Below, piece after piece: positions 2,822 to 20,224 of a stretch of DNA of 64,000 nucleotides (its first letter is position 1; each line of letters opens with the position of its first letter). The stretch comes from an uncultured Aliarcobacter sp. (GTDB lineage Bacteria > Campylobacterota > Campylobacteria > Campylobacterales > Arcobacteraceae). The notes under the pieces were generated by a model. It was not told where the DNA came from. It did no database searches and worked only from the letters and a program-made list of their open reading frames with translations. The position numbers and the translations under genes were made by a program. Location: assembly GCA_963664305.2 (NCBI GenBank), contig CAXXLV010000002.1:864001-928000 (forward strand), read 5' to 3'.

Positions 2822-5800
2822 TTAAATTAAACCACTAACTGTGATATCTTTATCAATTTTTAAAGACACTGAATTATCACCACTATTTACGTAAGTTTTA
2901 AACCCTTCTGTATCTATATTTCCATTTGTTGACCAATTTCCACCTGTATTATCTAAACTTACTGTATCCCCTGTATCTCCAAGTATTTTTAATAAATTAT
3001 TACTACTTGTAATATCAATTACATCTTGAAATGCTATATTTGACAAATCATTTGTAGCAGATGAATTTGTCATATCTATCTCTTCTATATTATTAATATC
3101 ATTTGTGTATGTTGCAAAATCTATATCAATTCCAGCATCTAAAATTAAAGTATCAGTTCCTGTTCCTCCATCAATAACTTTGTCAGTTGAATCAAAAACT
3201 ATTTTGCTATCTAATTCATAATCCAATGAAGTATTAACTGTTCCATTTCCAACTGTAATTGTTGTTAAACCACTATCATTATCACCATCTGCATCAGTAA
3301 TATCATAAGCATATTTCATCTCAAAAGTATCGTTATAATTTATACTTCCAATTGATTCAATTCCTAATTTAAATGAACTATTATTCCCTGCTAAAAATTC
3401 AACTCCAATAATTGGGTCACCATTTGAACTTCTAACTGTATATTCTAAATCAGGAGTATAAAAGCTATCATCTGTAAGAAGAATATTTTCTCTTCCATTT
3501 GTTGTAATAACAGTGATAAATAACTCATCTCCAGATTTTTCACTTCCAAAGTTGAATAATTTTATATTTATTTCTGAAATTTCATTTTTAGTTGTAGTAA
3601 TTCCATCATAAGTAGCTATTGTATTAAAATCAAAAATTAGTTGTTGACCAGCATTCATATTATTACTATCAACACCGATATAATAATTATTTGTGTTTAC
3701 AGTATGCTCTGCATCACTATCATTTAAATCACTTAAACTATCTTCTATTAAATTATGTGCTGTTACTAAAGCATCTACAACTACTGTTGAGTTAGTAGAA
3801 GATTGAGTGAATTGGAAAATTCTATAATCTTGATTTCCACCACCTGGTAATAAAATATCACCATCAATCATATTTACAACTCCAAGAAGTGTACTTCCTT
3901 GTGTATAGTTTAATGTTGTTCCATTTGAATCAGCCATAGTAATAGTTGTTTTAAAGATTTCTGTAGTTCCATTATCAATAGTTCCTGTTACAGTGTGATT
4001 TACATTATCATAAGTGATAACTACTTTTTGACCATTTGCATAAAGTTCTGGAATTCTTGTATTTGCAACATCCCAAGAAAATAGATTTGTACCATCACCA
4101 TAAGTTGTTGATATATTACTTCCATTTGTATTTACATTTCCATTTGTAACATGTAAAGTTTGATCTCCAATTAATGGTAATAGATTTGTATTATTAATAG
4201 TTACAGAATCTGTTGCATTTGGTGATGTTGAAGTTCCATCTATAGAATGTACAGTTGATGTTAAAGTAAAATTTGTTGATGTTGTAGTTATCTTTAATCC
4301 ACTTAATTGAGCTTGAGTAAATGTCCAAGTTCCATCATTATTATTTGTACCTTGATTAAATGTAGCACCAGTTGGAACTCCCGAAATAGTAACACTACTT
4401 AATGTTTCTGAACCATCAATATCTACAAGAGAATTAGAGATATTTACATCATATGTATAATTATTACTAGAATTTGATATTAAAGAAACATCATCTATTT
4501 TTATACTATTTCCTGTAAATACCAATGCATTGTAAGTTGTATCACTTCCTATTGTTGCACTTGCAGGTATAGTGAAAGTATAAGTTCCAGCAGATAATCC
4601 ACTTGCAATCACAACTTCAGTAGCTCCATTTGCAATATTTCCTATCCATGAAACTTTACCATCAGTTCCTGTTCCAGTTATTGTAAAAGTTACACTATAA
4701 GTTGCATTATCTTGAGCTAAAGGAACTCTAACATTTTGAATCATCCATTCGCCACTCAAAGATACACTTTTATCTGTCCCACTATCAACAACTTGAGTTA
4801 ATGTTTTATCTTGTGATGCTGTAATAGATTTTCCTGAATTTCCTGGAGATTGTTTCCCATACCAATTACCATCTGTTCCATTATTAGTACTTAAAGCAGA
4901 ATCTAAATTACCATTTATAAGTATATTTGTTCCTGTTGATAAAACTTTGTTACTTAAATTTATATTTATTATTGGCGTATCAGCATTTGCATTAACTGTT
5001 ACATTTGCAGTTCCTACAATTTCTAATCCACTTGCAACATTTGTTTTAATATATGTGAAACTATCACTTCCTGAAAAATCATTAGTTGGAGTATAAATCA
5101 AATTATTTCCACTTTGTGTAACTGTTCCATTTAAACCTTGACCTAAAATTGTATATGTATATTCAGATGTTGCAGTTAATGTAACACTATTTGATTGAGC
5201 AGAAAGATTAGTATCATCTCCATCTTCATAAACAGTTAAATTTACTTTATCTACTATTGTTGTAGTTGTTGATACATTTTTTGTTGATATTCCAGTATCT
5301 GTTGTTGATGCAATTAATGTAACCGTTTCATCTGGTTCTGTTGTATTATCATTTGTTGTTTGAGTTCTTATCAATACTGATGGAGTTGTTGTTAAACTTC
5401 CTGGTATTGTTACTGTAAAATTAGAAATTGTTTGCCAAGTTAATCCATCATCAGTTGAATATTCATAATTTTGAGAATAATCCACACCCCAACTTGCAGT
5501 TCCTGCTCCATTTAAAGTAACAATGGTATCTGTTGATTTTGGTGAACTTAAACTTAATTCAAATACTGCATAATCACCTTCATTTATATAAGGTTTTGTA
5601 TCTATTACTAAAGATGGATAATCATTTATTGTTGTACTTCCAGTTGCAGTTATATTTGCCATATCTGCATTTGAACCACCATTGATAGTTGCAGTCAAAG
5701 TTAAAGATTCTGCATCATCAGCAATACTATCAGTTAAAGTTTTTACTTTTATTTCAACAGAAGTTTGTCCTTGTAATAATGTAATTTTATTACTTGTAAC

Positions 5801-8767
5801 AACTTCCCAACTCCAACTTTGTCCATCATTTGCCCATTTTTTATAATATAAAGTATTGTCATAATCAGTTGAAGAATCAACTCCACCAATATTTAAATCT
5901 AATATTGTATTTTCATTTCTTGCTTCATCTAAACTAATAACAAATACAGCTGATTTTCCTTCATCAACAGGAAGTGGATTTGACACATTTAATGTATTTC
6001 CTATATCATAAGTAATTGTATTTGCATCATCGTCATAAGCTGTTCCATCATTAACTAAAAATTGGAAATTTGCATAAGGGATTCCAACTTCATTTGTGTC
6101 TGGTTTAAATACTAAATAACCATTATCAATAGCAGTTTTTGTGATTTCTTGATCTGTACTTACTTCAGTCCAAGAAGTTCCATCAAAATATAATAATTTC
6201 CCATTTGTTGCTAAAGATGTAATTTTTACTTTTGATAAACTATCTCCATCAACATCAGTAAATCCAAAATCACTTGAAGATAAAACATGAGTAGAATTTT
6301 TACCTAAAGATACTGTTTTATCAGCACCTTCTGGAATAGTGTTTGATTCTTTGATAGTTCCAATAGCTGTACCATCTAAAATAGAGCTTCCCGCTGAGTT
6401 ATTACTCAAAGTTACAGTAAATGTATCAATATCATTATCTGCATCAACAGGTACATTTAAAATAATTGTTTTATTTGTTTCACCTGGTAAAAAAGTAATA
6501 GTTCCACTTAATTGATTTGTACCTGCTGTAAAATCTCCACTTTCTGCACTATTTCCTGTTTCAATAGTAGCTGCATAATCTACTGTTTGATTAGCTTCTG
6601 CATCACCTATTCTTGAAACTACAAATGTAATAGTATTACTTGCACCTTCATATGCTTCTGCATCTGAAATTGAAAATTTAGTTCTATCATCATCTACAGA
6701 ACTATCACTATCATCTCCATCTGTCCCTGTTCCATTATCTGTGATTGTCCCTATTGCTGTATCTGAATCAGTAATGTAAGAAGAAGTAGCATTTGCAGAA
6801 AGAGTAAAAGTTTCGGCACCTTCGTAAATAGAATCACTAGTAGTTGGGATATTTACATTAAAGCTTGTTATTCCTGCTGGCAATGTAAATTTACCATTTA
6901 CATCTACACTTAGTGTTTGTGTTACATTTAATGAATCTACATATGTTACTGTCCAACTTGTTTTTGTTTGACTAAAATCATTATTCTCTGCACTTCCCAA
7001 ACTTGTGCTTAATGTTATCTCTTCTGCGTATTCACTTGCATTTGACAATGTCCCTACGAATACTAGTGTACTTCCTTCTTCTATTGTTGCATCACTCAAT
7101 GTTAATACTGGTTTATCATTATCCACAGAACTATCACTATCATCTCCATCTGTCCCTGTTCCATTATCTGTGATTGTCCCTATTGCTGTATCTGAATCAG
7201 TAATGTAAGAAGAAGTAGCATTAGCAGAAAGAGTAAAAGTTTCGGCACCTTCGTAAATAGAATCACTAGTAGTTGGAATATTTACATTAAAGCTTGTTAT
7301 TCCTGCTGGCAGTGTAAATTTACCATTTACATCTACACTTAATGTTTGTGTTACATTTAATGAATCTACATATGTTACTGTCCAACTTGTTTTTGTTTGA
7401 CTAAAATCATTACTCTCTGCACTTCCCAAACTTGTGCTTAATGTTATCTCTTCTGCGTATTCACTTGCATTTGACAATGTACCTACGAATACTATTGTAC
7501 TTCCCTCTTCCATTGTCGCATCACTCAATGTTAATACTGGTTTATCATTATCTACAGAATTATCACTATCATCTCCATCACTTCCACTTCCATTATCTGT
7601 GATTGTCCCTATTGCTGTATCTGAATCAGTAATGTAAGAAGAAGTAGCATTAGCAGAAAGAGTAAAAGTTTCGGCACCTTCGTAAATAGAATCACTAGTA
7701 GTTGGAATATTTACATTAAAGCTTGTTATTCCTGCTGGCAGTGTAAATTTACCATTTACATCTACACTTAATGTTTGTGTTACATTTAATGAATCTACAT
7801 ATGTTACTGTCCAACTTGTTTTTGTTTGACTAAAATCATTACTCTCTGCACTTCCCAAACTTGTGCTTAATGTTATCTCTTCTGCGTATTCACTTGCATT
7901 TGACAATGTACCTTCGAATACTATTGTACTTCCTTCTTCTATTGTTGCATCACTCAATGTTAATACTGGTTTATCATCATCTACAATTGTTCCAACACCT
8001 GAAACTGTTGAATTCATAAACTCTGTTTTCCCATTTAATCTAAATGTTTCATTTCCTTCAACATGCGTGTCATTAGTTGTCCCAATTTCAACTTTTAATG
8101 ATGTTTCACCAGTTGGAACTGTATAACTACCATCACTATTTTTATTAATTACATTACCTTTGGAATCTTTAACAATTATATTTGGATTTATATCAGTAGA
8201 ATCTGCTGTTTCATTTGTAGTCGGGAAAAAGTTAACTTTAAATGGTTTATTAGAAGCTTTATCAAAATTTACAGTAAATATTGCTGTATTTCCTTCTGTT
8301 ACTGTAACATTTGATATAGACATAGTTGTTTTTATAACTTCTTCAACTTGTGTTGGTTTAGTCTCTGTTCTAGGCTTTTCATCTTTATATTCATAAATAG
8401 TTTCTCTTAAATCCGCTTCAACATTACCTTCTAAGTTGTTTTTTTCAACAATCCTTGATTGTGTAGCATCAGACATAGGATTTCTTAAACTAGCATTTAC
8501 ATCACCATCTAAATCATTTTTTCTAACAATTCTAACTTTTAATGCATCATTATTACTTGTTGTACTAATTGTTGAATCATTTTGGGAAGCTTGATTATCA
8601 ATTTGCGTTTTTTGTTCATCATTTGTTTTTTCTAACGATGTTATATTTACATTATTTTCTAATTCATCAATCTGTGTTAAAAATTGTTGAATTTCCATTA
8701 AAATTTCATTATTTGGCATGTTTTGAGCTATTGTTTTATTTGATAATTCTTCTTGATTCTCAAGCAT
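2822..8767 (-). CDS. Large T1SS-secreted repetitive adhesin (Calx-beta/Ig-like repeats, RTX-like C-terminus)
   Basis: 1981 aa, T/S/D/N-rich, Calx-beta-like units (EGAETFTLSA...AIGTITD), C-terminal GGTGTDTLIL nonapeptide and NIEEIDM motif; first gene of the T1SS operon. Confidence 0.9.
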   Translation of the reverse strand: MLENQEELSNKTIAQNMPNNEILMEIQQFLTQIDELENNVNITSLEKTNDEQKTQIDNQASQNDSTISTTSNNDALKVRIVRKNDLDGDVNASLRNPMSDATQSRIVEKNNLEGNVEADLRETIYEYKDEKPRTETKPTQVEEVIKTTMSISNVTVTEGNTAIFTVNFDKASNKPFKVNFFPTTNETADSTDINPNIIVKDSKGNVINKNSDGSYTVPTGETSLKVEIGTTNDTHVEGNETFRLNGKTEFMNSTVSGVGTIVDDDKPVLTLSDATIEEGSTIVFEGTLSNASEYAEEITLSTSLGSAESNDFSQTKTSWTVTYVDSLNVTQTLSVDVNGKFTLPAGITSFNVNIPTTSDSIYEGAETFTLSANATSSYITDSDTAIGTITDNGSGSDGDDSDNSVDNDKPVLTLSDATMEEGSTIVFVGTLSNASEYAEEITLSTSLGSAESNDFSQTKTSWTVTYVDSLNVTQTLSVDVNGKFTLPAGITSFNVNIPTTSDSIYEGAETFTLSANATSSYITDSDTAIGTITDNGTGTDGDDSDSSVDNDKPVLTLSDATIEEGSTLVFVGTLSNASEYAEEITLSTSLGSAENNDFSQTKTSWTVTYVDSLNVTQTLSVDVNGKFTLPAGITSFNVNIPTTSDSIYEGAETFTLSANATSSYITDSDTAIGTITDNGTGTDGDDSDSSVDDDRTKFSISDAEAYEGASNTITFVVSRIGDAEANQTVDYAATIETGNSAESGDFTAGTNQLSGTITFLPGETNKTIILNVPVDADNDIDTFTVTLSNNSAGSSILDGTAIGTIKESNTIPEGADKTVSLGKNSTHVLSSSDFGFTDVDGDSLSKVKITSLATNGKLLYFDGTSWTEVSTDQEITKTAIDNGYLVFKPDTNEVGIPYANFQFLVNDGTAYDDDANTITYDIGNTLNVSNPLPVDEGKSAVFVISLDEARNENTILDLNIGGVDSSTDYDNTLYYKKWANDGQSWSWEVVTSNKITLLQGQTSVEIKVKTLTDSIADDAESLTLTATINGGSNADMANITATGSTTINDYPSLVIDTKPYINEGDYAVFELSLSSPKSTDTIVTLNGAGTASWGVDYSQNYEYSTDDGLTWQTISNFTVTIPGSLTTTPSVLIRTQTTNDNTTEPDETVTLIASTTDTGISTKNVSTTTTIVDKVNLTVYEDGDDTNLSAQSNSVTLTATSEYTYTILGQGLNGTVTQSGNNLIYTPTNDFSGSDSFTYIKTNVASGLEIVGTANVTVNANADTPIININLSNKVLSTGTNILINGNLDSALSTNNGTDGNWYGKQSPGNSGKSITASQDKTLTQVVDSGTDKSVSLSGEWMIQNVRVPLAQDNATYSVTFTITGTGTDGKVSWIGNIANGATEVVIASGLSAGTYTFTIPASATIGSDTTYNALVFTGNSIKIDDVSLISNSSNNYTYDVNISNSLVDIDGSETLSSVTISGVPTGATFNQGTNNNDGTWTFTQAQLSGLKITTTSTNFTLTSTVHSIDGTSTSPNATDSVTINNTNLLPLIGDQTLHVTNGNVNTNGSNISTTYGDGTNLFSWDVANTRIPELYANGQKVVITYDNVNHTVTGTIDNGTTEIFKTTITMADSNGTTLNYTQGSTLLGVVNMIDGDILLPGGGNQDYRIFQFTQSSTNSTVVVDALVTAHNLIEDSLSDLNDSDAEHTVNTNNYYIGVDSNNMNAGQQLIFDFNTIATYDGITTTKNEISEINIKLFNFGSEKSGDELFITVITTNGRENILLTDDSFYTPDLEYTVRSSNGDPIIGVEFLAGNNSSFKLGIESIGSINYNDTFEMKYAYDITDADGDNDSGLTTITVGNGTVNTSLDYELDSKIVFDSTDKVIDGGTGTDTLILDAGIDIDFATYTNDINNIEEIDMTNSSATNDLSNIAFQDVIDITSSNNLLKILGDTGDTVSLDNTGGNWSTNGNIDTEGFKTYVNSGDNSVSLKIDKDITVSGLI
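6685..7985. repeat. Three near-identical 429-bp (143-aa) tandem repeats inside the adhesin gene
   Basis: Period 429 visible directly (equivalent positions 7005, 7434, 7863); protein unit DKPVLTLSDA...DGDDSDxSVD. Confidence 0.95.
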
Positions 8768-9270: not shown

Positions 9271-9291
9271 AAGGTGGGAAATAAGTGGGAA
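9271..9291 (+). repeat. Putative integrase arm-type binding site (tandem GTGGGAA), left copy
   Basis: aaggtgggaaataagtgggaa is identical to 30879-30899 and overlaps the integrase RBS/GTG start. Confidence 0.7.
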
Positions 9292-10418
9292 ATATTGAAG
9301 CTAAAACAATCAATTATTCTAAAAGATTTAATACCAAATTTAATGGTGTGTTTTATAGAGAATCTATAACAAATGATAAACTAGATAAAACATATTATAT
9401 CAGATACAAAGATAAAGACAATAAAGATAAAGAAATAAAAATAGGCAAATATTCTGAGGGATTTAGAGAAAATTATTGTAATCAATTAAGAAATGAAATT
9501 ATAACAAAACAAAGAATTGGTGAAGAGCCTCCTGCTGCTGCAAGAAATAAAAGAAAAAAAATATTATCAATAGAAACTATTTCAGAAAACTATTTTTCTG
9601 AAAGAAAAGAGGGACAAAATAAAGGGACAGATAAATCAAATTTTAAAAACTATATTCTACCCTACTTTAAGAATCTTGATTTTGAAAACATATCTAAAGA
9701 TGATATACAAGTATTTACAAATCAATTAAAGAAAACAAAATCATTAATAAAAAAAGACCTTATTTCAGATAAAACAATAAACAATATTTTAAACTTTTTA
9801 AAAGCTCTGATTAAATACGCATTTAGAAATGACTATATCAAAAATGATTTTTCAAAATATATTCAATTATTAGAGATAGATAATGCTCGAGAAAGATTTT
9901 TAACTAAAGATGAGATAAAACAGTTATTTGAATATTCGAAAGATGATGAGACCCTTTATTTACTCTTTAAACTAGCATTAAATACTGGAGGAAGATTAGC
10001 AACACTATTAAATATCCATAAAAAAGATATTGATTTTACACATGATTTAATAACACTAAAAGACTTCAAAAATAATAGTACATATAAAGCTTTTTTAACT
10101 GATGATTTAAAAGAGCTTCTAGAGAAAAGAGTAAATTCTTTAAAACCAAATGATATGCTTTTTACATCAAATCCAGAAAGAAGATTAAGAGCTAAACTAG
10201 ATGAACTTTTTAACAAAGATATCAATGACAACGATAGAAAAAATAAAATTGTATTTCACTCTTTAAGACATACTTTTGCGAGTCATTTAGCTATTAATGG
10301 AACACCTATTTTCACAATTCAAAAACTTATGAATCATAAAGATATAAGAATGACTTTGAGATATGCTAAATTAAGTCCTGATAGTGGTAGAGAAGCTGTT
10401 AAGAACTTAAGATTATAA
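9285..10418 (+). CDS. Tyrosine recombinase / phage-type integrase
   Basis: Catalytic residues in TGGR, HSLRH, MNH and LRY motifs; adjacent to att site. Confidence 0.95.
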   Translation: MGNIEAKTINYSKRFNTKFNGVFYRESITNDKLDKTYYIRYKDKDNKDKEIKIGKYSEGFRENYCNQLRNEIITKQRIGEEPPAAARNKRKKILSIETISENYFSERKEGQNKGTDKSNFKNYILPYFKNLDFENISKDDIQVFTNQLKKTKSLIKKDLISDKTINNILNFLKALIKYAFRNDYIKNDFSKYIQLLEIDNARERFLTKDEIKQLFEYSKDDETLYLLFKLALNTGGRLATLLNIHKKDIDFTHDLITLKDFKNNSTYKAFLTDDLKELLEKRVNSLKPNDMLFTSNPERRLRAKLDELFNKDINDNDRKNKIVFHSLRHTFASHLAINGTPIFTIQKLMNHKDIRMTLRYAKLSPDSGREAVKNLRL

Positions 10419-10468
10419 ACTATAAAAAAGAATAAATTTAAAATTTATCTTTTAAATTAATTATTCTT

Positions 10469-11461
10469 TTACAAAACTTCTTCTAAATCTTTAAATTCTT
10501 TCAAAATATATTTTGAGCTATCAATATTATAAGATTTTGATGAATTATTATATTCCAAAAGTATAATTTTTCTTAACTCAGGGAATAACTCATCATCTAA
10601 AGGTCTAAAATCATATTCATCTCCATCCAGTAAACAATACTTATTATTATTTATTTCTAGAATTCTTGATTTTTCATTTAATGAAAAGAATTTATTCTTA
10701 TCACTACATATCATTGTCACATTATTTGAAAGTAATATTTCTTTCAGATTTTTCGAAATATTAAAATCATATGAATAAGTTAAATGGTAATTTTTTATTT
10801 CCGATATATCTCTTTGGCTAGGTAAATATTTTGTATAATCATAAAAATTTAATTCTGGAAAAATAGAAAAAATATTAATCTTTTCACTATCACTAGGTAT
10901 AACTATTGAATATTCATCTACATATGATTTTAATATTTTTTTTATATCACTATGTAACTCAAATTTATATTCATCTTTCTCCCAAGGAATGTCAGAAAGT
11001 CCATTTAATCTAACGGCAGGTTCTAATGAATTATTTTTTGCATGAATTAATAATTTTAGAATATCAAATACTAAAATATTCATAAAATTTTCTTTATCTT
11101 CAAAAAACCATTGAGTGTTATTTTTTCTATAATTATTATAATTTGTTGGTGCATTATAAAAACAAAAATCAATACACGTACCAGCATATTTACATGTATT
11201 AATAATATTAGAACTTTTATGAGGGGCAAGGTATAACATTCCAATTAAATATTTTTCATAAAGATTAGAAGGATTACCATATTTAAAATCTTTATATAAT
11301 CTTCCATATCTATCAAAATAACCTAATACATGATTATTAATATTTTTATTTTTAGTAAAATAGTTTTTCTTTTTAGAAAAATTCTTTGGTAAAGATAATT
11401 TTGGAAAAATTTCTTTTTTTAATTTAGAGAATTCTTCTCTTCTAATCTCTCTAATCCCCAT
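10469..11461 (-). CDS. Phage Gp88-like protein with C-x5-C-x3-C motif (possible Fe-S/radical-SAM-like)
   Basis: Motifs LYLAP, CKYAGTCIDFC, VRLNGLSDIPWE, FYDYTK, NYHLTYS, DGDEYDFR resemble the phage gene-product-88 family as I recall it; no search run. Confidence 0.65.
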   Translation of the reverse strand: MGIREIRREEFSKLKKEIFPKLSLPKNFSKKKNYFTKNKNINNHVLGYFDRYGRLYKDFKYGNPSNLYEKYLIGMLYLAPHKSSNIINTCKYAGTCIDFCFYNAPTNYNNYRKNNTQWFFEDKENFMNILVFDILKLLIHAKNNSLEPAVRLNGLSDIPWEKDEYKFELHSDIKKILKSYVDEYSIVIPSDSEKINIFSIFPELNFYDYTKYLPSQRDISEIKNYHLTYSYDFNISKNLKEILLSNNVTMICSDKNKFFSLNEKSRILEINNNKYCLLDGDEYDFRPLDDELFPELRKIILLEYNNSSKSYNIDSSKYILKEFKDLEEVL

Positions 11462-13349
11462 TTTTTATTATCCTTTTTATTATATATAATTCTAACTCTT
11501 TATTTTCACAATACACATAACAACCTTTCATTCCTCTAGTCATTAATGTTCTATATGTATTTTTGATTATGTTATCAATTTTAGTTTCTATTTCAACTAC
11601 TTTTTGAGTGTTTTTAGTTTTTTTGGCATCTTTTAATTGACCTTTATAGCCTTTTAAAGATTGGTCAGTTTTTGCTCTTTTATCTGGATTTGTAACTATT
11701 TTTCTATTTTCATAAGTTAAATCTTCTCCAATAATTACACCGATATAATCTACTTCTAATCCTTGACAAGTATGAATACAACCAATTTGTTCAACTGATT
11801 GTGGGCTAATTATCCAAAGACTTCCATCAATGGATAAATTCCATTGCATCTCAAATCCATATTTAGGAAGGATTATATCCATAGCCTTTGAATCTTTTTT
11901 ACTTTCCCAATTCCAACAATATCCTGCAACTAATCTAGCTTTATTATTAATTTTATTTTTCTCATAGATAGCATCTTTTAAATCATTTGGATTATCAAAT
12001 ACTTTAAAATCATATTCATTTAAATCTATAGTAGTGTTTGCAGTTTCTCTAATTTGTAATAGATTATCTAACCATGCTAAATAACCATCAGAGCCATTAC
12101 ATCTAAATTGAGATGTTAATTCCACTACTTCAACATTAGCATCATAATATTCAGCCCATTTTTTAATTTCAGATTCTTCACCAATATCATTAAAAGTTAC
12201 AGTTTGGTCTTCATCTAAAAAGAATATTACTGATTTAGAAGAGTAAATAGCTTCTTTGATTTGATTTTCACCAAGATTTCCATAAAGACCAGATTTTTCA
12301 TTCATTCTATGTGCTTCATCAATGATTAAACAATCATAAGAATTTTCTTCACAATCTACAAATGAGCCAGAGCCAGTAAATAGATTTGAGATTTCTGTTT
12401 TTTTCAAAGTTCCAGTTAGTTTTGATTCGTATACAGCTCTTGGTGCAGAGTTTTTACTAACATATCTTGAATTAAATCCTTTTTTTGTAAGTTCTACTAA
12501 AAGGTTAATTGCAATTACTGATTTTCCAGTCCCTGGTCCTCCATGAACAATTAAAACATTTTTATTTGTAGTATCTGATTTTCTAGCAAGTTCTAATGCA
12601 GATTCATAAACAATTTTTTGATTATCAATCATTGTAAATTCTTCATTACCTTTTATCATTGAAGCCATTGAATCAGCTAATGATTTAGAAGGTCTAATTT
12701 CACTTTTATCAATTTTATTCATCACATCATTTACATCACCATAAACAATATGTGAAGATATAAATTCAATTAGATTACTTCGTTCACCTTTTATAAATAC
12801 GGGAGCTTTAAATAAATAGTTCTTATAAAAATCATTTTTTAATACATCATCATTTGAATAATTATGTAAATATGCACAAGGAACTAACGAAATATTTTCA
12901 TCATTAACTACTTTGTTAAATCCTTCAAGCAATTTTACATATGACCAAGCTTGATATGATGGATGAGTAGTTTCTCTTAAGCCTCCACCTAAAATAGTTT
13001 TAATAACACCATCTTTTGAAGTAAGCTTTGATTCACTCCATTGTTTTAATTCAATGATAACTACTTTATCATTTCTATTTTCATCTTGACCAGATACAAT
13101 TAAATCTATTCTATTTCCAGTTCTTGGAATATTATATTCAATAGAGATATTTGAATCATTTGGTATCTTATCACAATATAAAACTTTAGCCATTTCATTT
13201 AAAGAGTTTTTCCATGAAATATATTCATTTTTTGGAGTATTTCTACCAAGATTAACTTCAACTGCATTTGCAATAATATCTTCAATTTCAATATCATTTA
13301 CTAATACATCTTCTAAAAATTCTTTTTTTGTTTTTTTATAAATAATCAT
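11451..13349 (-). CDS. DUF2075 / Schlafen-group-3-type helicase with N-terminal PD-(D/E)xK-like nuclease motif
   Basis: EY..RID..ELKQW, HPSYQA, Walker A GGPGTGKS, Walker B DEAHR, QFRC, GCIHTCQGLE, YRTLMTRG. Confidence 0.85.
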   Translation of the reverse strand: MIIYKKTKKEFLEDVLVNDIEIEDIIANAVEVNLGRNTPKNEYISWKNSLNEMAKVLYCDKIPNDSNISIEYNIPRTGNRIDLIVSGQDENRNDKVVIIELKQWSESKLTSKDGVIKTILGGGLRETTHPSYQAWSYVKLLEGFNKVVNDENISLVPCAYLHNYSNDDVLKNDFYKNYLFKAPVFIKGERSNLIEFISSHIVYGDVNDVMNKIDKSEIRPSKSLADSMASMIKGNEEFTMIDNQKIVYESALELARKSDTTNKNVLIVHGGPGTGKSVIAINLLVELTKKGFNSRYVSKNSAPRAVYESKLTGTLKKTEISNLFTGSGSFVDCEENSYDCLIIDEAHRMNEKSGLYGNLGENQIKEAIYSSKSVIFFLDEDQTVTFNDIGEESEIKKWAEYYDANVEVVELTSQFRCNGSDGYLAWLDNLLQIRETANTTIDLNEYDFKVFDNPNDLKDAIYEKNKINNKARLVAGYCWNWESKKDSKAMDIILPKYGFEMQWNLSIDGSLWIISPQSVEQIGCIHTCQGLEVDYIGVIIGEDLTYENRKIVTNPDKRAKTDQSLKGYKGQLKDAKKTKNTQKVVEIETKIDNIIKNTYRTLMTRGMKGCYVYCENKELELYIIKRIIKNGD

Positions 13350-15022
13350 TTTATTAATTCTTTTAATCTTTTTGTAACATTATCATTAACAGCATAAACT
13401 AATAAACCTTTTTTGGCTCTAGTCATTAATGTAATATAAATATTCCTAATCTCTATTTCTGTAGGTTTATCTTTGTCTTTATAATTTTGAGGTAAATAAA
13501 TAAATTTACCATTTTGATAATCTATGTCAGAACCTAAAATTAGACCAATATAATCATATTCTATCCCTTGTGCAGTGTAAATACAAGCAACTTCATTTAA
13601 TGAGTTATCTAAATAAAAACTTTTATAATTTTTTGTTTTTAATAAATTTTTATTATTCCATGCTTTAGACCAAGCATCTTTTTCAATATAAATATCTAAA
13701 GGTAAGGATCCATCACTTTTAGGTTCATTCCATTCCCAAGTAAATCCTGCAATAAGTTTTTTATTTGTATAGTTATTAAGCTCATTTTCTAAAATATTTA
13801 TATTATCAAATATTGAAACTGAAAATTCATTTGTATTTTTATAAAGTGTGGGATTTATAAATAGATTATAAACCCAATCTTCGTAGAAGTTTTGTCCTTT
13901 ACTTCTTAATTGAAATCTTAATTTCTCATAAATGATGGTTTTATTAATTAATTGCTTTTTTATATCATCTACATTAATACCTTTTGCAGATATTTTTTGA
14001 AAATCATCAATTAGTAAAATTAAATTTTTACATTTATTTGATAATTCAACTAGTTCTTGTTTTGTTAATCTATGTGCTTCATCAACAATAATAAAATCGT
14101 ATAAAGTATTGTTTTGAGTAATTGAATATGAATGAAAAATAGGAAATTTATTATGTTTTGAAGTATGGTATAAAAATGAAGAAGGTATAGTTAAAACTAC
14201 ATTTTTTTTTAATTTAATTAATTCTACTAAAAGTTTATATCCTACAACTGTTTTACCACTTCCTGCTCTTCCATCCAGAATAAAAATATTATTTTGTCTA
14301 TTTTTATTTTGTAATACTTTTGAATAAAAAACTCTTTGCTTATCTATAATATTTATACTAAAGTCATCATTCATTAAATTGTTTACATAATCAATAATTG
14401 ATGGAGTTGGTATTAATTGCTTTTCAATCAGACATTTTAAAAGACCTTTTTCTTTACTTTTTTCTATTTCAAATGAAACTAAATTGGCATATAGAAAATC
14501 TCTAAATTTATTTTTTGTAATTTTCGAAAATGAATATTCAGAAAATTTTTTACAATTTAATAATAAATTATTCTGAATTTCTGTATCTATATTATGTAAA
14601 TAAGAACAATACAAAGAACTTATACCTTTACTTCCATAAAAAAAATCTATTAATGATTGGCTATATTCTTTTGCTTGTAATGTAGGATGAATATATTCTT
14701 TTAAATCATGATTAGGAATTATAAAATCTTTTATTGATTCTCTAATAGTCCATTGTTTTAATTCAATTACAATAGAACAATTTTTACCAACTAATAAAAC
14801 ATCAATTCTTTTATCTATAAATTTTAAATGATATTCAATAAATATGTATAAATTAGTTTTATTTTCTAGAAGTGAAAGAATTTTTGCCAATTCAGGTAAT
14901 GATTTTTTCCAAGATTTAAATTCTTCTGTATTCTTATTCTTGAAATTTTCTAAAATATTAAATATAGATCCACTCTCTATATCTTTTAAAAAGATTTCGA
15001 TTGTATTTGAATAATAAGCCAC
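13346..15022 (-). CDS. Second, divergent DUF2075 / Schlafen-group-3-type nuclease-helicase
   Basis: EY..RID..ELKQW, HPTLQA, Walker A GRAGSGKT, DEAHR, QLRS, CIYTAQGIE, YITLMTRA; GTG start abuts MazG stop. Confidence 0.82.
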   Translation of the reverse strand: MAYYSNTIEIFLKDIESGSIFNILENFKNKNTEEFKSWKKSLPELAKILSLLENKTNLYIFIEYHLKFIDKRIDVLLVGKNCSIVIELKQWTIRESIKDFIIPNHDLKEYIHPTLQAKEYSQSLIDFFYGSKGISSLYCSYLHNIDTEIQNNLLLNCKKFSEYSFSKITKNKFRDFLYANLVSFEIEKSKEKGLLKCLIEKQLIPTPSIIDYVNNLMNDDFSINIIDKQRVFYSKVLQNKNRQNNIFILDGRAGSGKTVVGYKLLVELIKLKKNVVLTIPSSFLYHTSKHNKFPIFHSYSITQNNTLYDFIIVDEAHRLTKQELVELSNKCKNLILLIDDFQKISAKGINVDDIKKQLINKTIIYEKLRFQLRSKGQNFYEDWVYNLFINPTLYKNTNEFSVSIFDNINILENELNNYTNKKLIAGFTWEWNEPKSDGSLPLDIYIEKDAWSKAWNNKNLLKTKNYKSFYLDNSLNEVACIYTAQGIEYDYIGLILGSDIDYQNGKFIYLPQNYKDKDKPTEIEIRNIYITLMTRAKKGLLVYAVNDNVTKRLKELIK

Positions 15023-15367
15023 TTATAACTCCGAATATTTTTTTGCATTACCTTTAGACTTTTCAACTGGATATTTTTTTTCAAATTTTTCTAATTTATC
15101 ATAAATTGCTTCTTCTAAATTAATATCAAATTTCATACATAATCTTAAAAGATATATTGAAATATCTGCAATTTCTTCTTTTAAATGTTCATGTTTTTTT
15201 TCATCAAGGTTATATGATTGTTCTTCAGTAAGCCATTGAAATATTTCTAATAATTCTGCAGATTCTTTTGCTAACGCCATTGAGAGATTTTTAGGAGAAT
15301 GAAATTGATTCCAATCTCGTTCATCTGATATTTTTTTTAATAGAGTTTGTATATTTTTTGTATTCAA
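15023..15367 (-). CDS. MazG-like nucleotide pyrophosphohydrolase (DCTPP1/RS21-C6-like)
   Basis: ERDWNQFHSPKNL, ESAELLEIFQW and EEIADI motifs. Confidence 0.9.
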   Translation of the reverse strand: MNTKNIQTLLKKISDERDWNQFHSPKNLSMALAKESAELLEIFQWLTEEQSYNLDEKKHEHLKEEIADISIYLLRLCMKFDINLEEAIYDKLEKFEKKYPVEKSKGNAKKYSEL

Positions 15368-15382
15368 AAAAAACCTTTTATA

Positions 15383-15424
15383 AAATATAAAATATTGTAC
15401 TAAATATAATATCTTATTGTCAAC
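15383..15424 (-). promoter_or_regulatory. Promoter of MazG-DUF2075-Gp88 operon (near-copy of the TA promoter)
   Basis: Minus strand TTGACA-18 bp-TACAAT; 38/42 identical to 16021-16062. Confidence 0.65.
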
Positions 15425-15479
15425 GAAGATACTAAATATAAGCCTATTTGAAAAAACTATTCAAAAGTTATTATAAAAT

Positions 15480-15764
15480 CTAGAATCTATCTTTTAGATT
15501 CTTATAAATTTTATCTTTTTCCCTTTTTCCAACACTCAATACTAAAACAACTATCTCTTCATCCTTAACTTGATAAGCAAGTCTATATCCAACATTTCTT
15601 AGTTTTATTTTATAAACATTTTCATATCCACTTAGTTTATCTTTTTCTACTTTTGGATTTTCTAATCTCTCTTCTAATTTCTTTTTAAATTGTTCTTTTA
15701 TTGTTGAGCCTAATTTACTCCACTCTTTTAAAGCTTGAGGTTTAAATTCAAGATTATAAGTCAT
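15480..15764 (-). CDS. RelE/StbE-family type II toxin
   Basis: YNLEFKPQALKEW, YKIKLR, GYRLAY, VGKRE; overlaps antitoxin stop. Confidence 0.92.
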   Translation of the reverse strand: MTYNLEFKPQALKEWSKLGSTIKEQFKKKLEERLENPKVEKDKLSGYENVYKIKLRNVGYRLAYQVKDEEIVVLVLSVGKREKDKIYKNLKDRF

Positions 15765-16005
15765 CTAAACTTACTTTAACTGGTTTTTCACCATCATTTA
15801 AAGCTTTTCCTACTTCTAATGACAAATGATAATCATCTATAATATCCATCATTTTTTCATATAATTTACTTGGAACTAGATATGCACTAGGGATATTATG
15901 ATTTAATATTGCTATAACTTCATTATCAGCTTCATTGAGTAATTGTGTAGGAGATTTTTTAAGTTCTGTTATACTCGCACTATAATTTGCTAAAATTGGT
16001 TGCAT
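15754..16005 (-). CDS. Phd/YefM (StbD-type) antitoxin
   Basis: SASITELKKSP, AILNHNIPSAYLVP, C-terminal VSLDDL. Confidence 0.92.
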   Translation of the reverse strand: MQPILANYSASITELKKSPTQLLNEADNEVIAILNHNIPSAYLVPSKLYEKMMDIIDDYHLSLEVGKALNDGEKPVKVSLDDL

Positions 16006-16020
16006 TTTATATCCTTAATT

Positions 16021-16062
16021 AAATATGAAATATTATACTAAATATAGTATCTTTTTGTCAAC
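16021..16062 (-). promoter_or_regulatory. TA promoter with operator palindrome
   Basis: Minus strand TTGACA-18 bp-TATAAT; palindrome ATACTA-aata-TAGTAT at 16035-16050 overlaps the -10. Confidence 0.7.
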
Positions 16063-16100
16063 ATAGGTTTAATAAGATAATTCTTGTTATTAAAAAGTAA

Positions 16101-16130
16101 AAAAGGATTGATTTTATTATCAACCCTTTT
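16101..16130 (-). terminator. Intrinsic terminator after 64-aa ORF
   Basis: Minus strand gggttgat-aataaa-atcaatcc hairpin followed by a T run. Confidence 0.6.
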
Positions 16131-16134
16131 AATA

Positions 16135-16329
16135 TTATTTTCTTTTAAATCCGTTATTCTCAAGTAATGTATATACTTGTTTGTGAGTTGAATAGTGAAT
16201 TTCTTTATTAGCACATTTTTCTTTTAAAAACTGTTTAACAGTCTTTGTTTCTTTATCTTTATATAAACTTGCAACATAATTATGTTCATGTTCTTCACTA
16301 CAATTAAAATATTCGTGATCACGCCCCAT
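16135..16329 (-). CDS. Small hypothetical protein (64 aa)
   Basis: AGGAG RBS upstream, own terminator, plausible composition (YFNCSEEHEHNYV). Confidence 0.7.
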   Translation of the reverse strand: MGRDHEYFNCSEEHEHNYVASLYKDKETKTVKQFLKEKCANKEIHYSTHKQVYTLLENNGFKRK

Positions 16330-16440
16330 TCATTACTCCTTCTAAAATTTAACATATTTATTAATTAAAGATGCTATGTATCATTGTACAAAATTATTTA
16401 TTATTTTTAATTAAAAAAATAATAAATTCATATATTTTTA

Positions 16441-16829
16441 TTACACATGATTTAATAACACTAAAAGACTTCAAAAATAATAGTACATATAAAGCTTTTT
16501 TAACTGATGATTTAAAAGAAATTCTAGAAAAAAGAGTAGATTCTTTGAAACCAAATGATATGCTTTTTACATCAAATCCAGAAAGAAGATTAAGAGCAAA
16601 ACTTGATGAACTATTTAACAAAGATATCAATGAAAACGATAGAAAAAATAAAATTGTATTTCACTCTTTAAGACATACTTTTGCAAGTCATTTAGCTATC
16701 AATGGAACACCTATCTTTACAATTCAAAAGCTTATGAATCATAAAGATATAAGAATGACTTTGAGATATGCTAAATTAAGTCCTGATAGTGGGAGAGAAG
16801 CTGTTAAGAATTTATCTTTTGATTTATAA
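16441..16829 (+). pseudogene. 3' fragment of a second, closely related integrase
   Basis: 16441-16810 is ~96% identical to 10036-10405; the N-terminal two thirds are absent and the ORF-track start at 16371 is non-homologous. Confidence 0.9.
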
Positions 16830-16888: not shown

Positions 16889-19800
16889 ATGGGAATTTTT
16901 GATAGTCTTATTTTACCTTACACTCTAGGGATATTTGTAAATAAATCAAGTGATAAATTAAATTCAATATTTAAAAATAATGAAAATCTTTTAAAAAAAC
17001 TTTTTGTAAAATCTTTTATACAAACAATAGAAAACTCTAAAGTAGGATATTTCTCTACTAATAGTATATTCGATAATTTAATTAAAAAGATTGAGAAGAA
17101 TGATGAAAAATTATTTTTTTTAATAGAAAATGAATCATTAAGTAAAAATGAAAATTTTCTTAATTTAATTAAAAATCCGGAGTTTTCAAATACTTTTATA
17201 GAAAAATTATTTAAAGAATATTCGTTAGATACAAAAAATATAGATAAAGATAGTCTTTTAGGAAATTCTTTAAAAAACTTATTAAATAATTATGAAATAA
17301 TATTTTTCCAGAATTTATCGGTAGATACTTCTCTGTCTTTAATTTTTAAAGAAGTATTAAAAATAAAAAATTTGTCTCAAACTTTAAATTCCATAGCAGA
17401 AAAGATTACAGAATTTGATGAAGTAAGAAAAATACTAACAAAAGATTATTTAATTAATAATATAGATTATAGTAAAAGTAGAGAAGTATATGACTCTTAT
17501 TTACTGAGAAAATATGAATTTTTAGAACTAGCAGGATTTTCACCAAAAATATCTGGAAAAGATATTTTTATGAAATTATCGGATGTTTTCATCCCTTTAA
17601 TGATAGAGGGTAATGATTCATCAGAAATAAGATTAACTTCAAAAGAAGCTATCGAAAATATTTTAAATTCAAAACATAAGTCTTTAGTTATTTTAGGAGA
17701 TCCTGGTTCTGGAAAATCAACTTTATTAAAATATATAGCAAGCTTTATTTCTTCTAATCGAAGTTTAGATTGGTTATATCAAGATACTATGCCTTTATTA
17801 ATAAAAGTTTCAGAATATGCTGAATGGTATAAAACTTATAACAAAAATTTATTTGAATATATTAAAGATTTAGACTCTCAGTATAAAAATATATTTATTG
17901 AAAATTTAGAGTGTTCAAATTTATTAATTTTATTAGATGGATTAGATGAAGTAACTGATAGTTCAATAAGAAATAAAATTGTTAATAATATTATTGATTT
18001 AAAAGCAAGATATCCTTTTAATAGATATATAGTGACTTCAAGAATTATTGGTTATAGAGAATCAAGTTTAAGTGGACATTTTCAAGAATCAAGATTACAA
18101 GATTTTTCAGAAAATGATATTAAACAATTTTCTAATCAATGGTATAAATCAATAGCTCAAAGTGAAATATCATCAAAATCTGATATTACAGAATTTGAAA
18201 TTAGTGAAATCAATACAAAGTATAATAATTTGGCAAAAGAATTATTTTCATCTATATCAAGAAATAGTTCCGTTATTAAATTTGCTAAAAATCCATTGTT
18301 AATGACAATTATTGTAATGATATTTTTTCAATCAAAAAAATTACCTAATAAAAGAGTAGAGTTATATGAAATTGCAACTGAAACATTTTTAGATAATTGG
18401 GTAAGAGTTCGATTTGAAGAAAATTCAAAGTTTAAAGATAAAGGAATTATGCTTGAGATTCTCCCTCATATTGCTTTTGAAATACATTCAGGTAATGATA
18501 AAGGACTTATACATGAAGAATTATTTAAAAAAGAATTTATAGAACTTTATCGAGAAATTAACGGAGTGGATTTAAATCTGGCAAAAAAAGAGTTTATTGA
18601 ATTTAAAGAATTTTTAGAAAAATATACAGGATTTTTTTATCGAAAAGATTTAGATGGTAGTTTATATGGATTTGTTCATTTAACATTTGAAGAATATCTA
18701 GCAGCTTTAGAATTAAAATCTAAGTGGGATTTAAAAACCTTAAAATTGGAAGATTATGTTTTTGATTCACGTTGGAGTGAAGTTATTAGACTTGCAATAG
18801 CTAATTTAAAAATATCTAATAGAGCAATTTCTGGTAGAGTAAAAGCAACAGAATTTATTAAAGACATCTTAAAAGTTAATGATTCTTATCCTAAACTTCA
18901 TAGATTATTTCAATTAGTATTATTGATTTTTATTGATGATGTTGAAATTAATAATGAATTAAAAGAAGAAATAATAACAAAATTCTTTTTTTTACTTGAA
19001 GAGCATACAGAAATTTCTTTATTAGATACATTAACAAAGATTTTTGGTGAAATAAATTATAGTATATATAATAATGATTTTTTTGAAAGAATTAAAGAAA
19101 TATTAAAATCATCAAAAAATAAAAACTTGTTGACAAATATTTTTTATTTATTAATTAACAATACAGATAAAAAAGAAATAGAAATATTTATTTATGAAAT
19201 ATTAAATGAGTATGGTAATCAAAAATATTTCTTTGAAGCAATATACAATATAGATTATAAACTTTTAAAAAAAGTTAAACTTGAAAAAGCTTTTTTAATT
19301 AAAAATTGGGTAGAACTTATTAATAAAAAAGAATTCTCAGAAAGTTATGTTGAAAGTATTACTCCTAAGCTCTCTAAATTTTTATTAAGTAATAAATCTA
19401 ATTCTTCTTCTATAATTAAAACTACTATTATAGACTTCTTTATTGAAATATTTAATTTAATTAAAAATTCAGATTATGAAAATATTTTCTATAAATTGAT
19501 AATGAGAGAAATGCATGCTTTTGGAAGAAATAATATTAAACTAACTATATTAGATAAAATTAATAATAAACCTATAAAAAAGAAATTAAAAGAAATGCTA
19601 ACACTTGCTAAAAAAATTGAAGAAAAAGAAATAGACCATACTTCTTTTAGAATGGGAGCTTACTTTAAAAATTATTTACTCATAAAAAGTGATGAAAAAT
19701 CAACAATAACAGATTTAAGAAATTTAGAAAAAATATATATTGATAAAAATTTATTAATAGATATTAAAAACAACACAGCAAAATATCCTGAAGAATTTAT

Positions 19801-20224
19801 AGAAGCTGTTTATTTTATTTCTGGTTATGAGCAAGAAGATAATATAGATATATTTATAAAATGTGCTGAAAAAGGAGAAATTTTTCAATTTTTTGACTGG
19901 GAAGAGTTTTCGTTAAGAAATTTAAGAAAAGACCCAAAAAATTTATCAAAATTTATATTGTTACAAGTTAGAAATAGAGAGAAAAGATTATTTACAGATG
20001 AAAGCAATCTAAAAAAAATTTTAAATAATTATTATGAAGATAAAAAATTCTTTAATAATTTAGATGCAACAGTTCAATTTATAATTCTGAAATTATTAAA
20101 TATAGACATTGATAAAAATATTACGGATAAATGTTTTGAATTGATGAGTACAATGAATAAAAAAGACCAAGAAATAATGTATAATCATTTATTTGAGCAT
20201 TTAAATCCATACTATCTTTTATAA
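16889..20224 (+). CDS. NACHT-domain STAND NTPase (bacterial NLR-like, probable antiphage)
   Basis: Walker A GDPGSGKS, Walker B LLDGLDE, VTSR, NPLL, FVHLTFEEYLAA winged-helix motif, long helical C-terminus. Confidence 0.88.
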   Translation: MGIFDSLILPYTLGIFVNKSSDKLNSIFKNNENLLKKLFVKSFIQTIENSKVGYFSTNSIFDNLIKKIEKNDEKLFFLIENESLSKNENFLNLIKNPEFSNTFIEKLFKEYSLDTKNIDKDSLLGNSLKNLLNNYEIIFFQNLSVDTSLSLIFKEVLKIKNLSQTLNSIAEKITEFDEVRKILTKDYLINNIDYSKSREVYDSYLLRKYEFLELAGFSPKISGKDIFMKLSDVFIPLMIEGNDSSEIRLTSKEAIENILNSKHKSLVILGDPGSGKSTLLKYIASFISSNRSLDWLYQDTMPLLIKVSEYAEWYKTYNKNLFEYIKDLDSQYKNIFIENLECSNLLILLDGLDEVTDSSIRNKIVNNIIDLKARYPFNRYIVTSRIIGYRESSLSGHFQESRLQDFSENDIKQFSNQWYKSIAQSEISSKSDITEFEISEINTKYNNLAKELFSSISRNSSVIKFAKNPLLMTIIVMIFFQSKKLPNKRVELYEIATETFLDNWVRVRFEENSKFKDKGIMLEILPHIAFEIHSGNDKGLIHEELFKKEFIELYREINGVDLNLAKKEFIEFKEFLEKYTGFFYRKDLDGSLYGFVHLTFEEYLAALELKSKWDLKTLKLEDYVFDSRWSEVIRLAIANLKISNRAISGRVKATEFIKDILKVNDSYPKLHRLFQLVLLIFIDDVEINNELKEEIITKFFFLLEEHTEISLLDTLTKIFGEINYSIYNNDFFERIKEILKSSKNKNLLTNIFYLLINNTDKKEIEIFIYEILNEYGNQKYFFEAIYNIDYKLLKKVKLEKAFLIKNWVELINKKEFSESYVESITPKLSKFLLSNKSNSSSIIKTTIIDFFIEIFNLIKNSDYENIFYKLIMREMHAFGRNNIKLTILDKINNKPIKKKLKEMLTLAKKIEEKEIDHTSFRMGAYFKNYLLIKSDEKSTITDLRNLEKIYIDKNLLIDIKNNTAKYPEEFIEAVYFISGYEQEDNIDIFIKCAEKGEIFQFFDWEEFSLRNLRKDPKNLSKFILLQVRNREKRLFTDESNLKKILNNYYEDKKFFNNLDATVQFIILKLLNIDIDKNITDKCFELMSTMNKKDQEIMYNHLFEHLNPYYLL

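Follow-up and report, generated by a model that had tools for sequence, protein, structure and literature searches.

Do the four coupled genes that occupy a mobile segment in an uncultured Aliarcobacter sp. act as one defence machine, or do they enclose a smaller unit that recurs without the rest? The stretch analysed here, 64,000 nucleotides of contig CAXXLV010000002.1 (assembly GCA_963664305.2, positions 864,001 to 928,000 of the forward strand), is called the window below. It carries four minus-strand open reading frames (ORFs) in the order MazG-like protein, helicase A, helicase B and GP88-like protein, and a preliminary description of this DNA had proposed the set as a candidate undescribed defence system. 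Our survey of relatives leads to a different unit: what is conserved is the MazG-like gene together with helicase B, and there is no fixed four-gene system. We lean towards reading the locus as an elaboration of a widespread and unnamed two-gene module of defence islands, to whose core of MazG and helicase B a second helicase, A, and a phage-derived GP88 have been added.

ORF calling places the MazG-like gene at 15023-15367 (114 aa, TTG start), the helicase A gene at 13346-15022 (558 aa, GTG start), the helicase B gene at 11451-13349 (632 aa) and the GP88-like gene at 10469-11461 (330 aa), all on the minus strand. The TAA stop codon of the MazG-like gene abuts the GTG of helicase A at 15022, the two helicase frames overlap by 4 bp (13346-13349), and those of helicase B and GP88 overlap by 11 bp (11451-11461). 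The GTG start of helicase A is supported by the alignment of its N-terminus with that of helicase B. Both the coordinates and the sequence thus agree with the four coupled same-strand genes and the junctions reported earlier, and Pfam matches bear out the identities given to the components. The region is AT-rich, with a GC content of 0.21-0.25 over 10-20 kb of the window, and the names borne by proteins of 86-90% identity point to Aliarcobacter butzleri. The MazG-like protein matches PF12643 at 7.5e-15 (55.4 bits against a cut-off of 27), the pyrophosphatase family phrog_3301 at 4.6e-17 and, among solved structures, 4qgp at 8.9e-22 and DCTPP1 (6sqw) at 6.5e-21. The acidic metal-binding E-x-x-E and E-E-x-x-D positions are kept in its alignment to both structures. 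As judged from these alignments, the protein is a homologue of the all-alpha nucleoside triphosphate (NTP) pyrophosphatases of the DCTPP1/RS21-C6 type.

The conserved unit emerged from a scan with a helicase alignment over one genome per species, which confirmed 296 relatives; the analysis kept the best 80 loci. The B-type proteins of these 80 are 38-58% identical to helicase B and come from Pseudomonadota, Bacillota, Bacteroidota, Chloroflexota, Nitrospirota, bacteria of the candidate phyla radiation (CPR), an archaeon and others. A same-strand MazG-like gene lies within 1.2 kb of the helicase in 56 of the 80 loci (48 upstream, 8 downstream), and in one more locus the only MazG-like gene is distant and lies on the other strand. 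No such gene was seen in the remaining 23, three of which (L058, L071 and L091) cannot be judged on the upstream side because the helicase starts at a contig edge or within about 100 bases of it. In contrast, GP88, sought with a hidden Markov model (HMM) from 122 sequences at E ≤ 1e-3, was found in none of the 80 loci, nor was a clear second DUF2075 paralogue; in two loci (L084 and L086) neighbouring ORFs match helicase A only partially, at about 42-44 bits. The core module can therefore do without GP88, and the four genes may not work as a single machine. The fixed four-gene system that the preliminary description had envisaged does not survive these counts.

Where does this core pair reside? 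We took 12 loci, picked by taxon name only, and compared 140 proteins encoded within 5.5 kb on either side with Pfam. Clear defence or mobile-element neighbours were present in 9 of the 12: AbiEi/AbiEii, Mrr, McrB-like proteins with DUF2357/PDDEXK_7, Gabija-like AAA_21 plus UvrD, SoFic-like Fic, HEPN, PIN_12, NERD-HRDC, RhuM, SNF2 plus NOV_C, integrases and transposases. One locus was ambiguous (L094, from Chryseobacterium), and two (L022 and L053) have neighbourhoods of a housekeeping type. The pair of MazG-like protein and helicase B is a typical resident of defence islands, and the earlier remark that MazG/DUF2075 pairs sit among such genes is upheld. Directly 3' of the pair, the Chryseobacterium locus encodes a protein of 724 aa that has a dCMP/cytidine deaminase domain (L094:11915-14086), another cytosine-nucleotide enzyme beside the module.

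We found no named system that corresponds to this pair. In PADLOC-DB 2.0.0 the Nhi profile matches helicase A at 3.4e-17 (positions 18-375 of 470) and helicase B at 6e-14 (positions 192-375 of 470); these are weak and partial matches, and the AbiO and PDC-S41 profiles score the two helicases about as well (1e-14 to 1e-17). The same library gave no match for the MazG-like protein or GP88. NCBIfam 20.0 (June 2026), which includes curated antiphage models, gave none for GP88, helicase A or the MazG-like protein, and two matches far below cut-off for helicase B. A full-text literature search returned no paper on a defence pair of MazG with DUF2075 or a nuclease-helicase, and none on PF17338, the family of GP88; the papers that came up on Schlafen nuclease domains do not deal with the pair. 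The core pair appears to be undescribed both in print and in the profile libraries that were queried, as the preliminary description had suspected for the whole set. In the accessible part of the DefensePredictor paper, MazG is listed among the predicted, unvalidated defence domains.

Both helicases keep their nuclease and ATPase motifs. Helicase A matches PF09848 (DUF2075/SLFN-g3_helicase) at 4.9e-45 and NERD at 4.4e-5, and helicase B matches PF09848 at 1.8e-102. The residues D82 and E100-x-K102 (R-I-D82 and E100-L-K102-Q-W), the Walker A stretch G270-K276 and the DEAH box at 344-347 are invariant in A, in B and in the two counterparts encoded by G043, a genome of another family in the same order. 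Among 43 B-type proteins D82, E100, K102, G270-K276 and D344-H347 are likewise invariant. Thus the intact Walker A/B and D..ExK motifs noted at the outset are confirmed for both proteins, and so is their strong divergence, with 28.5% identity between A and B. The AlphaFold model of helicase B (pLDDT 87.8) has SLFN11, RecD, RecD2, Dna2, IGHMBP2 and Dda as its top folds, with Upf1 lower in the list, and by this model helicase B is a helicase of superfamily 1B (SF1B) fold. A complex prediction for helicase B with GP88 scored 0.00 and gave no answer; it speaks neither for nor against binding. Several B relatives of about 800 aa end in a LexA-type Peptidase_S24 domain (L017:10001-12412, L022:10001-12424, L080:10001-12370 and L089:1543-4017), and at L081:9983-12388 this domain is split off as a separate downstream ORF.

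The second helicase has a narrower and less uniform distribution. When 401 genomes of the order were searched with helicase A, twin DUF2075 genes turned up in three of them only: the window genome, G043 and a further genome, G356. NERD matches were obtained for helicase A, for both G043 helicases and for the second helicase of G356. The close subfamily of helicase A comprises six clusters at 50-91% identity beside its own 100% cluster, after which identities fall to 31% or less, and a plasmid search brought up only distant DUF2075 proteins (<30% identity) and no A-type relative. In a tree of 42 rows five metagenomic proteins (P0127-P0131, 50-61% identity) join the window's A in a long-branched clade, and the second helicases of G043 and G356 fall in another clade, nested among the B-type proteins. 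Because the second helicases split into two clades, there may have been two origins of the twin state, or else the lineages may evolve at strongly different rates.

We then ask what GP88 is. The window protein matches PF17338 at 1.7e-21 (77.6 bits against a cut-off of 24.4) and carries the motifs LYLAP, C90-x5-C96-x3-C100, RLNGxSD, FYDYTK, NYHLT.S and DGD..R. Across 122 members C90, C96, C100, R151, N153, S156, D157, Y207, D208, Y209, K211, N224, Y225, S230, D284 and R286 are invariant, and the GP88-like motifs reported at first, with their Cys, N, S, D and K positions, are therefore present and conserved. The family gave 1082 matches in one search and is mainly one of phages, as had been supposed: its clusters in a protein atlas are about 100% viral, and it occurs in 23 of 50,697 phage records, among which phages of the surface-water bacteria Pelagibacter, Caulobacter and Limnohabitans are common. 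Two of the phage homologues are annotated as Gp37/Gp68-like. A T7-like pelagiphage carries GP88 upstream of its integrase and RNA polymerase genes, and in Caulobacter phage Sansa it follows two methyltransferases and precedes a helicase. Among 132 ORFs flanking phage-type GP88 in 77 loci, almost all are small and unannotated. Ten have a Pfam match (GIY-YIG, SWIM, SprT-like, HTH_39, DUF932, DnaB/Toprim primase-helicase and four weak coiled-coil-type matches), and no glycosylase, MazG or DUF2075 is found among the 132.

Among Campylobacterota GP88 is sporadic. It was matched in 8 of 401 genomes, the window genome included, and in none of nine other species of the window's genus. Among the GP88 contexts that were fetched, only G043 also has helicases and MazG; its genes run MazG, A-like, GP88, B-like, with GP88 between both helicases, and their frames overlap. 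The solo GP88 genes of five other Campylobacterota genomes have no DUF2075 or MazG gene within about 10 kb. A metagenome scan with the system-type GP88 alignment (system-type denoting the copies associated with nuclease-helicase genes) yielded 80 loci, 556 kb in all and every one GP88-positive; a DUF2075 gene is present in one of them, L106, directly adjacent to GP88. This 6.4-kb contig (GC about 26%) has a divergent MazG-like gene, followed by a B-type helicase, GP88, an HNH-HIT fusion with a 4-bp overlap, and endonuclease I. Relative to the window, its helicase B is 85% identical, its MazG 49.5% and its GP88 34%, which shows that the parts have been exchanged independently around a stable helicase. 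Such exchange is expected of parts that determine specificity or extend range, and it equally fits the independent stacking of genes.

Thus GP88 lies inside the operon in three low-GC loci, those of the window, G043 and L106, with overlapping or abutting frames in each and in three gene orders. G356 has the twin helicases, B and then the second one with a 4-bp overlap, and has neither a MazG-like gene nor GP88 (HMM at E ≤ 1). The four Campylobacterota-type loci with a B-type helicase therefore each have a different accessory set. The recurrence of the combination asked for by the preliminary description holds in part: GP88 does come together with MazG and DUF2075 in G043 and L106, but in few Campylobacterota-like loci only and in shuffled order. 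The GP88-bearing twin-helicase form is a rare, lineage-specific variant.

These loci contain further genes of interest. In G043 a class-I S-adenosylmethionine (SAM) methyltransferase gene (L011:12512-13120) overlaps MazG by 4 bp, and a gene of metallo-beta-lactamase fold (L011:7107-7802) overlaps helicase B by 4 bp; both may belong to the G043 version of the operon. In G356 two coupled genes of 290 aa (L183:7144-8016) and 340 aa (L183:6125-7147), neither with a Pfam match, lie 3' of the twin helicases at the place that GP88 takes in other loci. HNH and HIT stand beside a B-type helicase in two Campylobacterota-type loci, as the fusion at L106:3758-4741 and at L183:12364-13868, where they are two adjacent genes of G356 on the opposite strand, divergent from the operon.

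Four system-type GP88 proteins, at 29-45% identity to the window copy, keep C90, C96, C100, N153, S156, D157, D208, Y209, T210, K211, N224, Y225, S230, G280, D281 and R286. Conservation of these Cys, N, S, D, K and R residues at such identities argues for a conserved active site rather than a decoy. Two further features, an extra stretch of about 45-65 residues at the N-terminus and an insertion that follows the W-E motif, are common to the system-type proteins and absent from phage-type and solo copies; accordingly the system-type proteins measure 314-368 aa against about 225-280 aa in the phage type. In a GP88 tree of 128 rows (quick IQ-TREE, LG+G4, no rows dropped) the A. butzleri clade, P0007 (a close outside relative, 42% identity) and L106 group together with an SH-aLRT support of 83, and the G043 protein joins this system-type group on a very long branch. 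The other 119 rows lie on the far side of a branch with support 86, and the five solo Campylobacterota copies form a clade of their own with support 100. Long branches and skewed composition were flagged for the system-type rows, whose low-GC grouping is possibly artificial, and the grouping is trustworthy only moderately.

The preliminary description had guessed that GP88 is an Fe-S or radical-SAM enzyme, and here the fold offers a lead. The AlphaFold model of the window protein (pLDDT 82.4, pTM 0.85) places in order a strand at 71-76, the loop with the three cysteines C90, C96 and C100, long helices and, at 147-151, a strand with RLNG at its end. In a structural search over 48,161 chains, all of the top 17 matches to the model are radical-SAM enzymes. 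The first is spore photoproduct lyase (Z 6.0, rmsd 5.2, 183 residues aligned), followed by PFL-activating enzyme (5.7), NifB, ChlB, a methyltransferase, three QueE structures, queuine lyase, lysine aminomutase and others. We also built an alignment of DUF5131 from 20 Campylobacterota genes; it shows the motifs C-x6-C-x2-C, NSMSD and TKR, and hhalign pairs RLNGTSDIPWE...FYDYTK of GP88 with VNSMSDLFHE...QILTKR of DUF5131. The RadicalSAM.org pages available list DUF5131 among the radical-SAM subgroups and place it in one megacluster with spore photoproduct lyase.

Several results weigh against this kinship. The Z scores of the 17 matches, 4.4-6.0, are at a commonly seen level. Foldseek with the GP88 model against the PDB returned nothing at E ≤ 1e-3 and weak TIM-barrel rows only, a PDB sequence search with the GP88 profile gave rows at chance level, and P0122 had no PDB sequence match. 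When Pfam was run on the 122 members, GP88 itself was matched in all, DUF5131 in one (E 0.064) and Radical_SAM (PF04055) in none at E ≤ 1. The cysteine spacing, CX5CX3C, is not the canonical CX3CX2C, and the hhalign match to DUF5131 is weak (probability 36%, E 3.7e-4, 48 columns). The guess thus has support at the level of the fold, with Z scores that are middling, and the cysteine motif departs from the canonical one. Taking the model with these results, GP88 is probably a distant member or relative of the radical-SAM superfamily with a non-canonical Cys motif.

The operon is cargo of a mobile element. A full tyrosine integrase is encoded at 9285-10418 (Pfam scan), and a 152-aa integrase fragment, an orphan 3' part, at 16371-16829. 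A second copy of the final ~390 nt of the integrase gene (10027 to ~10405) lies at 16432 to ~16810, with 92% identity over 422 aligned nt; the homology begins abruptly and the copies lie 6405 bp apart. The duplicated integrase end thus delimits a 6405-bp segment, between the full integrase and the 3' fragment, that holds the operon, a toxin-antitoxin (TA) pair of ParE and Phd and a small ORF of 64 aa, the last two upstream of the operon. The simplest account, going by this duplication, would be two related islands in tandem, of which the second and older has a truncated integrase. Beyond the fragment a NACHT protein of 1111 aa is encoded at 16889-20224 (Pfam NACHT, 1.9e-08). It matches the antiphage EruA model of NCBIfam weakly and at the P-loop alone, and is probably a separate STAND-type defence gene. 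The Pfam matches to ParE/Phd, the integrase and its fragment, and NACHT agree with the setting first described. To the left of the island lies the gene for a 1981-aa Calx-beta protein (window 2822-8767), within which three opposite-strand ORFs start 429 nt apart (7005, 7434 and 7863), which suggests a 429-nt tandem repeat. To its right are a Mutator-family transposase (23530-24732), a TrbL/VirB6 conjugal-transfer gene (27804-28814) and a tRNA-Glu (30951-31026). All that lies between 9 and 31 kb may be an integrative conjugative region in decay.

The TA pair may be more than a neighbour. The ParE toxin gene (15480-15764, minus strand; Pfam ParE_toxin 7.8e-16) and the Phd antitoxin gene (15754-16005, minus strand; PhdYeFM_antitox 2.1e-09) form, with their promoter box, a unit at 15480-16061 (minus strand) on the same 6.4-kb segment as the operon. 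A promoter-like box, TTGACA-18-TACAAT, stands 5' of the MazG-like gene (15390-15423, minus strand) and is a near-copy of the phd box. The phd box, at 16028-16061, meets 12 of 12 sigma-70 consensus positions, that of the MazG operon, at 15423-15394, 11 of 12, and these are the two best sigma-70-like sites within 10300-16400. The 48-nt repeats that contain them (15377-15424 and 16015-16062) are 88% identical, with a near-identical spacer and TATAAT and TACAAT as -10 forms. Their 34-nt core has two copies in the window, and the same two only in the whole 2.78-Mb genome. An inverted repeat, ATACTA-TATT-TAGTAT, spans the -10 region of the phd box and is degenerate in the MazG copy. The single promoter proposed for the operon has this consensus-like box as its sole basis; promoter-like sites in the region are overall not above chance (42 observed, 53.8 expected). 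Judged from the repeats, the TA pair may gate or co-regulate the MazG operon through the common promoter box.

How might such an operon work? By analogy with the nuclease-helicase Nhi, whose nuclease and helicase activities, according to the available portion of its preprint, hold down the build-up of phage DNA, helicase B, probably with A, would load on invading phage or plasmid DNA, and the two would degrade it by ATP-driven SF1B translocation coupled to their PD-(D/E)xK nuclease. The MazG-like protein could hydrolyse dCTP or 5-modified dCTP, with one of two effects: phages that make modified DNA would be starved, or modified nucleotides would be kept out of the host DNA. GP88 would be a phage-derived, catalytically intact enzyme related to radical-SAM proteins of the DUF5131 or spore-photoproduct-lyase kind, recruited by a few Campylobacterota lineages, and by acting on DNA bases or nucleotides it might widen or redirect the targets of the nuclease-helicases. 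We do not think that GP88 is a decoy or a structural subunit. A more specific scheme would make it a radical enzyme that acts on phage DNA bases or nucleotides, stripping or creating a modification or making a viperin-like antiviral nucleotide, and so supplies the substrate of a heteromeric pair of nuclease-helicases, with the pool of dCTP or modified dCTP under the control of the DCTPP1-like enzyme; this scheme, taken whole, we consider quite unlikely. The idea that GP88 is the self-protecting, methylase-like half of a restriction-modification-type pair was rejected, as the B-type loci elsewhere lack GP88 in 80 of 80 cases.

Our preferred reading, an elaborated MazG-helicase module, has to be set against others. 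The antiphage function is itself inferred from architecture and neighbours only, and some facts pull the other way: helicase B of L106 is broken by a stop codon, the G356 operon does without MazG and GP88, the twin-helicase state may have more than one origin, and housekeeping neighbourhoods do occur. The main rival holds that the genes are merely stacked, with MazG and helicase B as one system, helicase A as a separate Nhi-like single gene and GP88 as a third cargo, and no joint mechanism. The absence of GP88 and of a clear second helicase from the 80 B-type loci elsewhere favours it, as do a gene order that differs in every Campylobacterota locus, the unequal identities of the L106 parts to those of the window, which point to independent exchange, and the fact that Nhi and Nhi-like proteins work as single genes, as the consulted parts of the two preprints describe them. 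Yet each of the three loci with GP88 has overlapping or abutting frames, GP88 stands between both helicases in G043, the system-type GP88s group together with an extension and an insertion of their own, and the sole DUF2075-bearing locus among the 80 metagenomic GP88 loci has that gene directly next to GP88. We therefore regard stacking as unlikely, while giving it more weight than any other alternative.

A module for the care of DNA and nucleotide pools is another way to join the same parts: MazG would clean dNTPs, the nuclease-helicases would process damaged ends, and GP88 would reverse lesions as spore photoproduct lyase does. Relatives of DCTPP1 are house-cleaning enzymes. The best structural match of GP88 is indeed a radical-SAM enzyme of DNA repair, the B relatives of about 800 aa with a LexA-type S24 domain provide a link to a DNA-damage signal, the G043 copy adjoins nrdD/nrdG, and many phage GP88s belong to phages of surface-water bacteria. 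Against this stand the sporadic, horizontal distribution (GP88 in 8 and twin helicases in 3 of the 401 genomes), the integrase-flanked segment with its TA pair, and the clear defence or mobile neighbours in 9 of the 12 sampled loci; because of these, accessory immunity fits better than core repair, and we hold a care module to be decidedly improbable. Least of all do we believe that GP88 is a passenger left behind by a phage, or a captured decoy or sensor as the preliminary description had offered in the alternative, with no catalytic role. The viral character of the family and the five Campylobacterota genomes in which GP88 stands without DUF2075 or MazG are what one would expect of a passenger, but catalytic-looking invariant residues are kept in the four system-type copies at only 29-45% identity, which indicates selection on an active site, and these copies group apart from the solo ones.

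The MazG and DUF2075 pair is very widespread, with B-type proteins 38-58% identical over bacterial phyla, CPR and archaea and usually placed among defence genes. In a few lineages it has gained a second helicase and an enzyme of phage type that is probably related to radical-SAM proteins, and this makes the window a natural experiment. Its study could establish the pair as a defence system, could give a first function to the GP88 family, which is abundant in marine and freshwater phages, and could show whether immunity uses nucleic-acid chemistry beyond cutting and methylation. Should the radical-enzyme reading of GP88 prove true, the locus would represent a new class of enzyme-assisted nuclease-helicase defence. 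The promoter box common to Phd/ParE and the operon provides a testable case of a TA pair that gates a defence operon.

The individual proteins have known counterparts from which they differ in telling ways. Homology at E of about 1e-21 to solved structures and the preserved acidic motifs tie the MazG-like protein to DCTPP1/RS21-C6, but it is a bacterial form of 114 aa whose gene is translationally coupled to that of a nuclease-helicase. GP88 has the full motif set of the PF17338 phage proteins, yet the system-type copies are longer and sit in a bacterial nuclease-helicase operon, whereas the phage genes occupy an early or replication region. To DUF5131 (Gp37/Gp68) it aligns weakly, at the level of motifs, in hhalign, and two of its phage homologues are annotated as Gp37/Gp68-like. 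Its partial-barrel model has its best matches in radical-SAM enzymes, spore photoproduct lyase first, from which its CX5CX3C spacing in place of CX3CX2C and the missing Pfam Radical_SAM match set it apart.

For the helicases, two comparisons suggest themselves. The helicase-nucleases of the AddAB, AdnAB and RecBCD type are two-subunit enzymes, and A and B resemble them in being adjacent, translationally coupled and paralogous helicase-nucleases, with RecD and RecD2 among the best folds of B; unlike those enzymes, A and B each keep intact ATPase and nuclease motifs, and in each the nuclease precedes the helicase. The closest likeness is to Nhi and Nhi-like proteins. In the available part of the preprint of Millman et al. 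(2022), Nhi-like is a single protein with an N-terminal nuclease followed by DUF2075, and A and B are each one polypeptide with an N-terminal PD-(D/E)xK-type nuclease and then a DUF2075 SF1B helicase. The accessible section of the Nhi preprint names Dda, Dna2 and Upf1 as structural relatives of Nhi (S. epidermidis SERP2475), and all three are among the relatives of our helicase B model. Defence-rich surroundings are a further trait in common. In contrast to the single genes described in those portions of the preprints, the locus in the window is a coupled operon of four genes in which the helicase occurs twice and GP88 is added, and a MazG-like gene is adjacent in 56 of 80 relatives. On balance, we find it probable that the locus represents a lineage-specific, enzyme-augmented variant of nuclease-helicase defence of the Nhi type.

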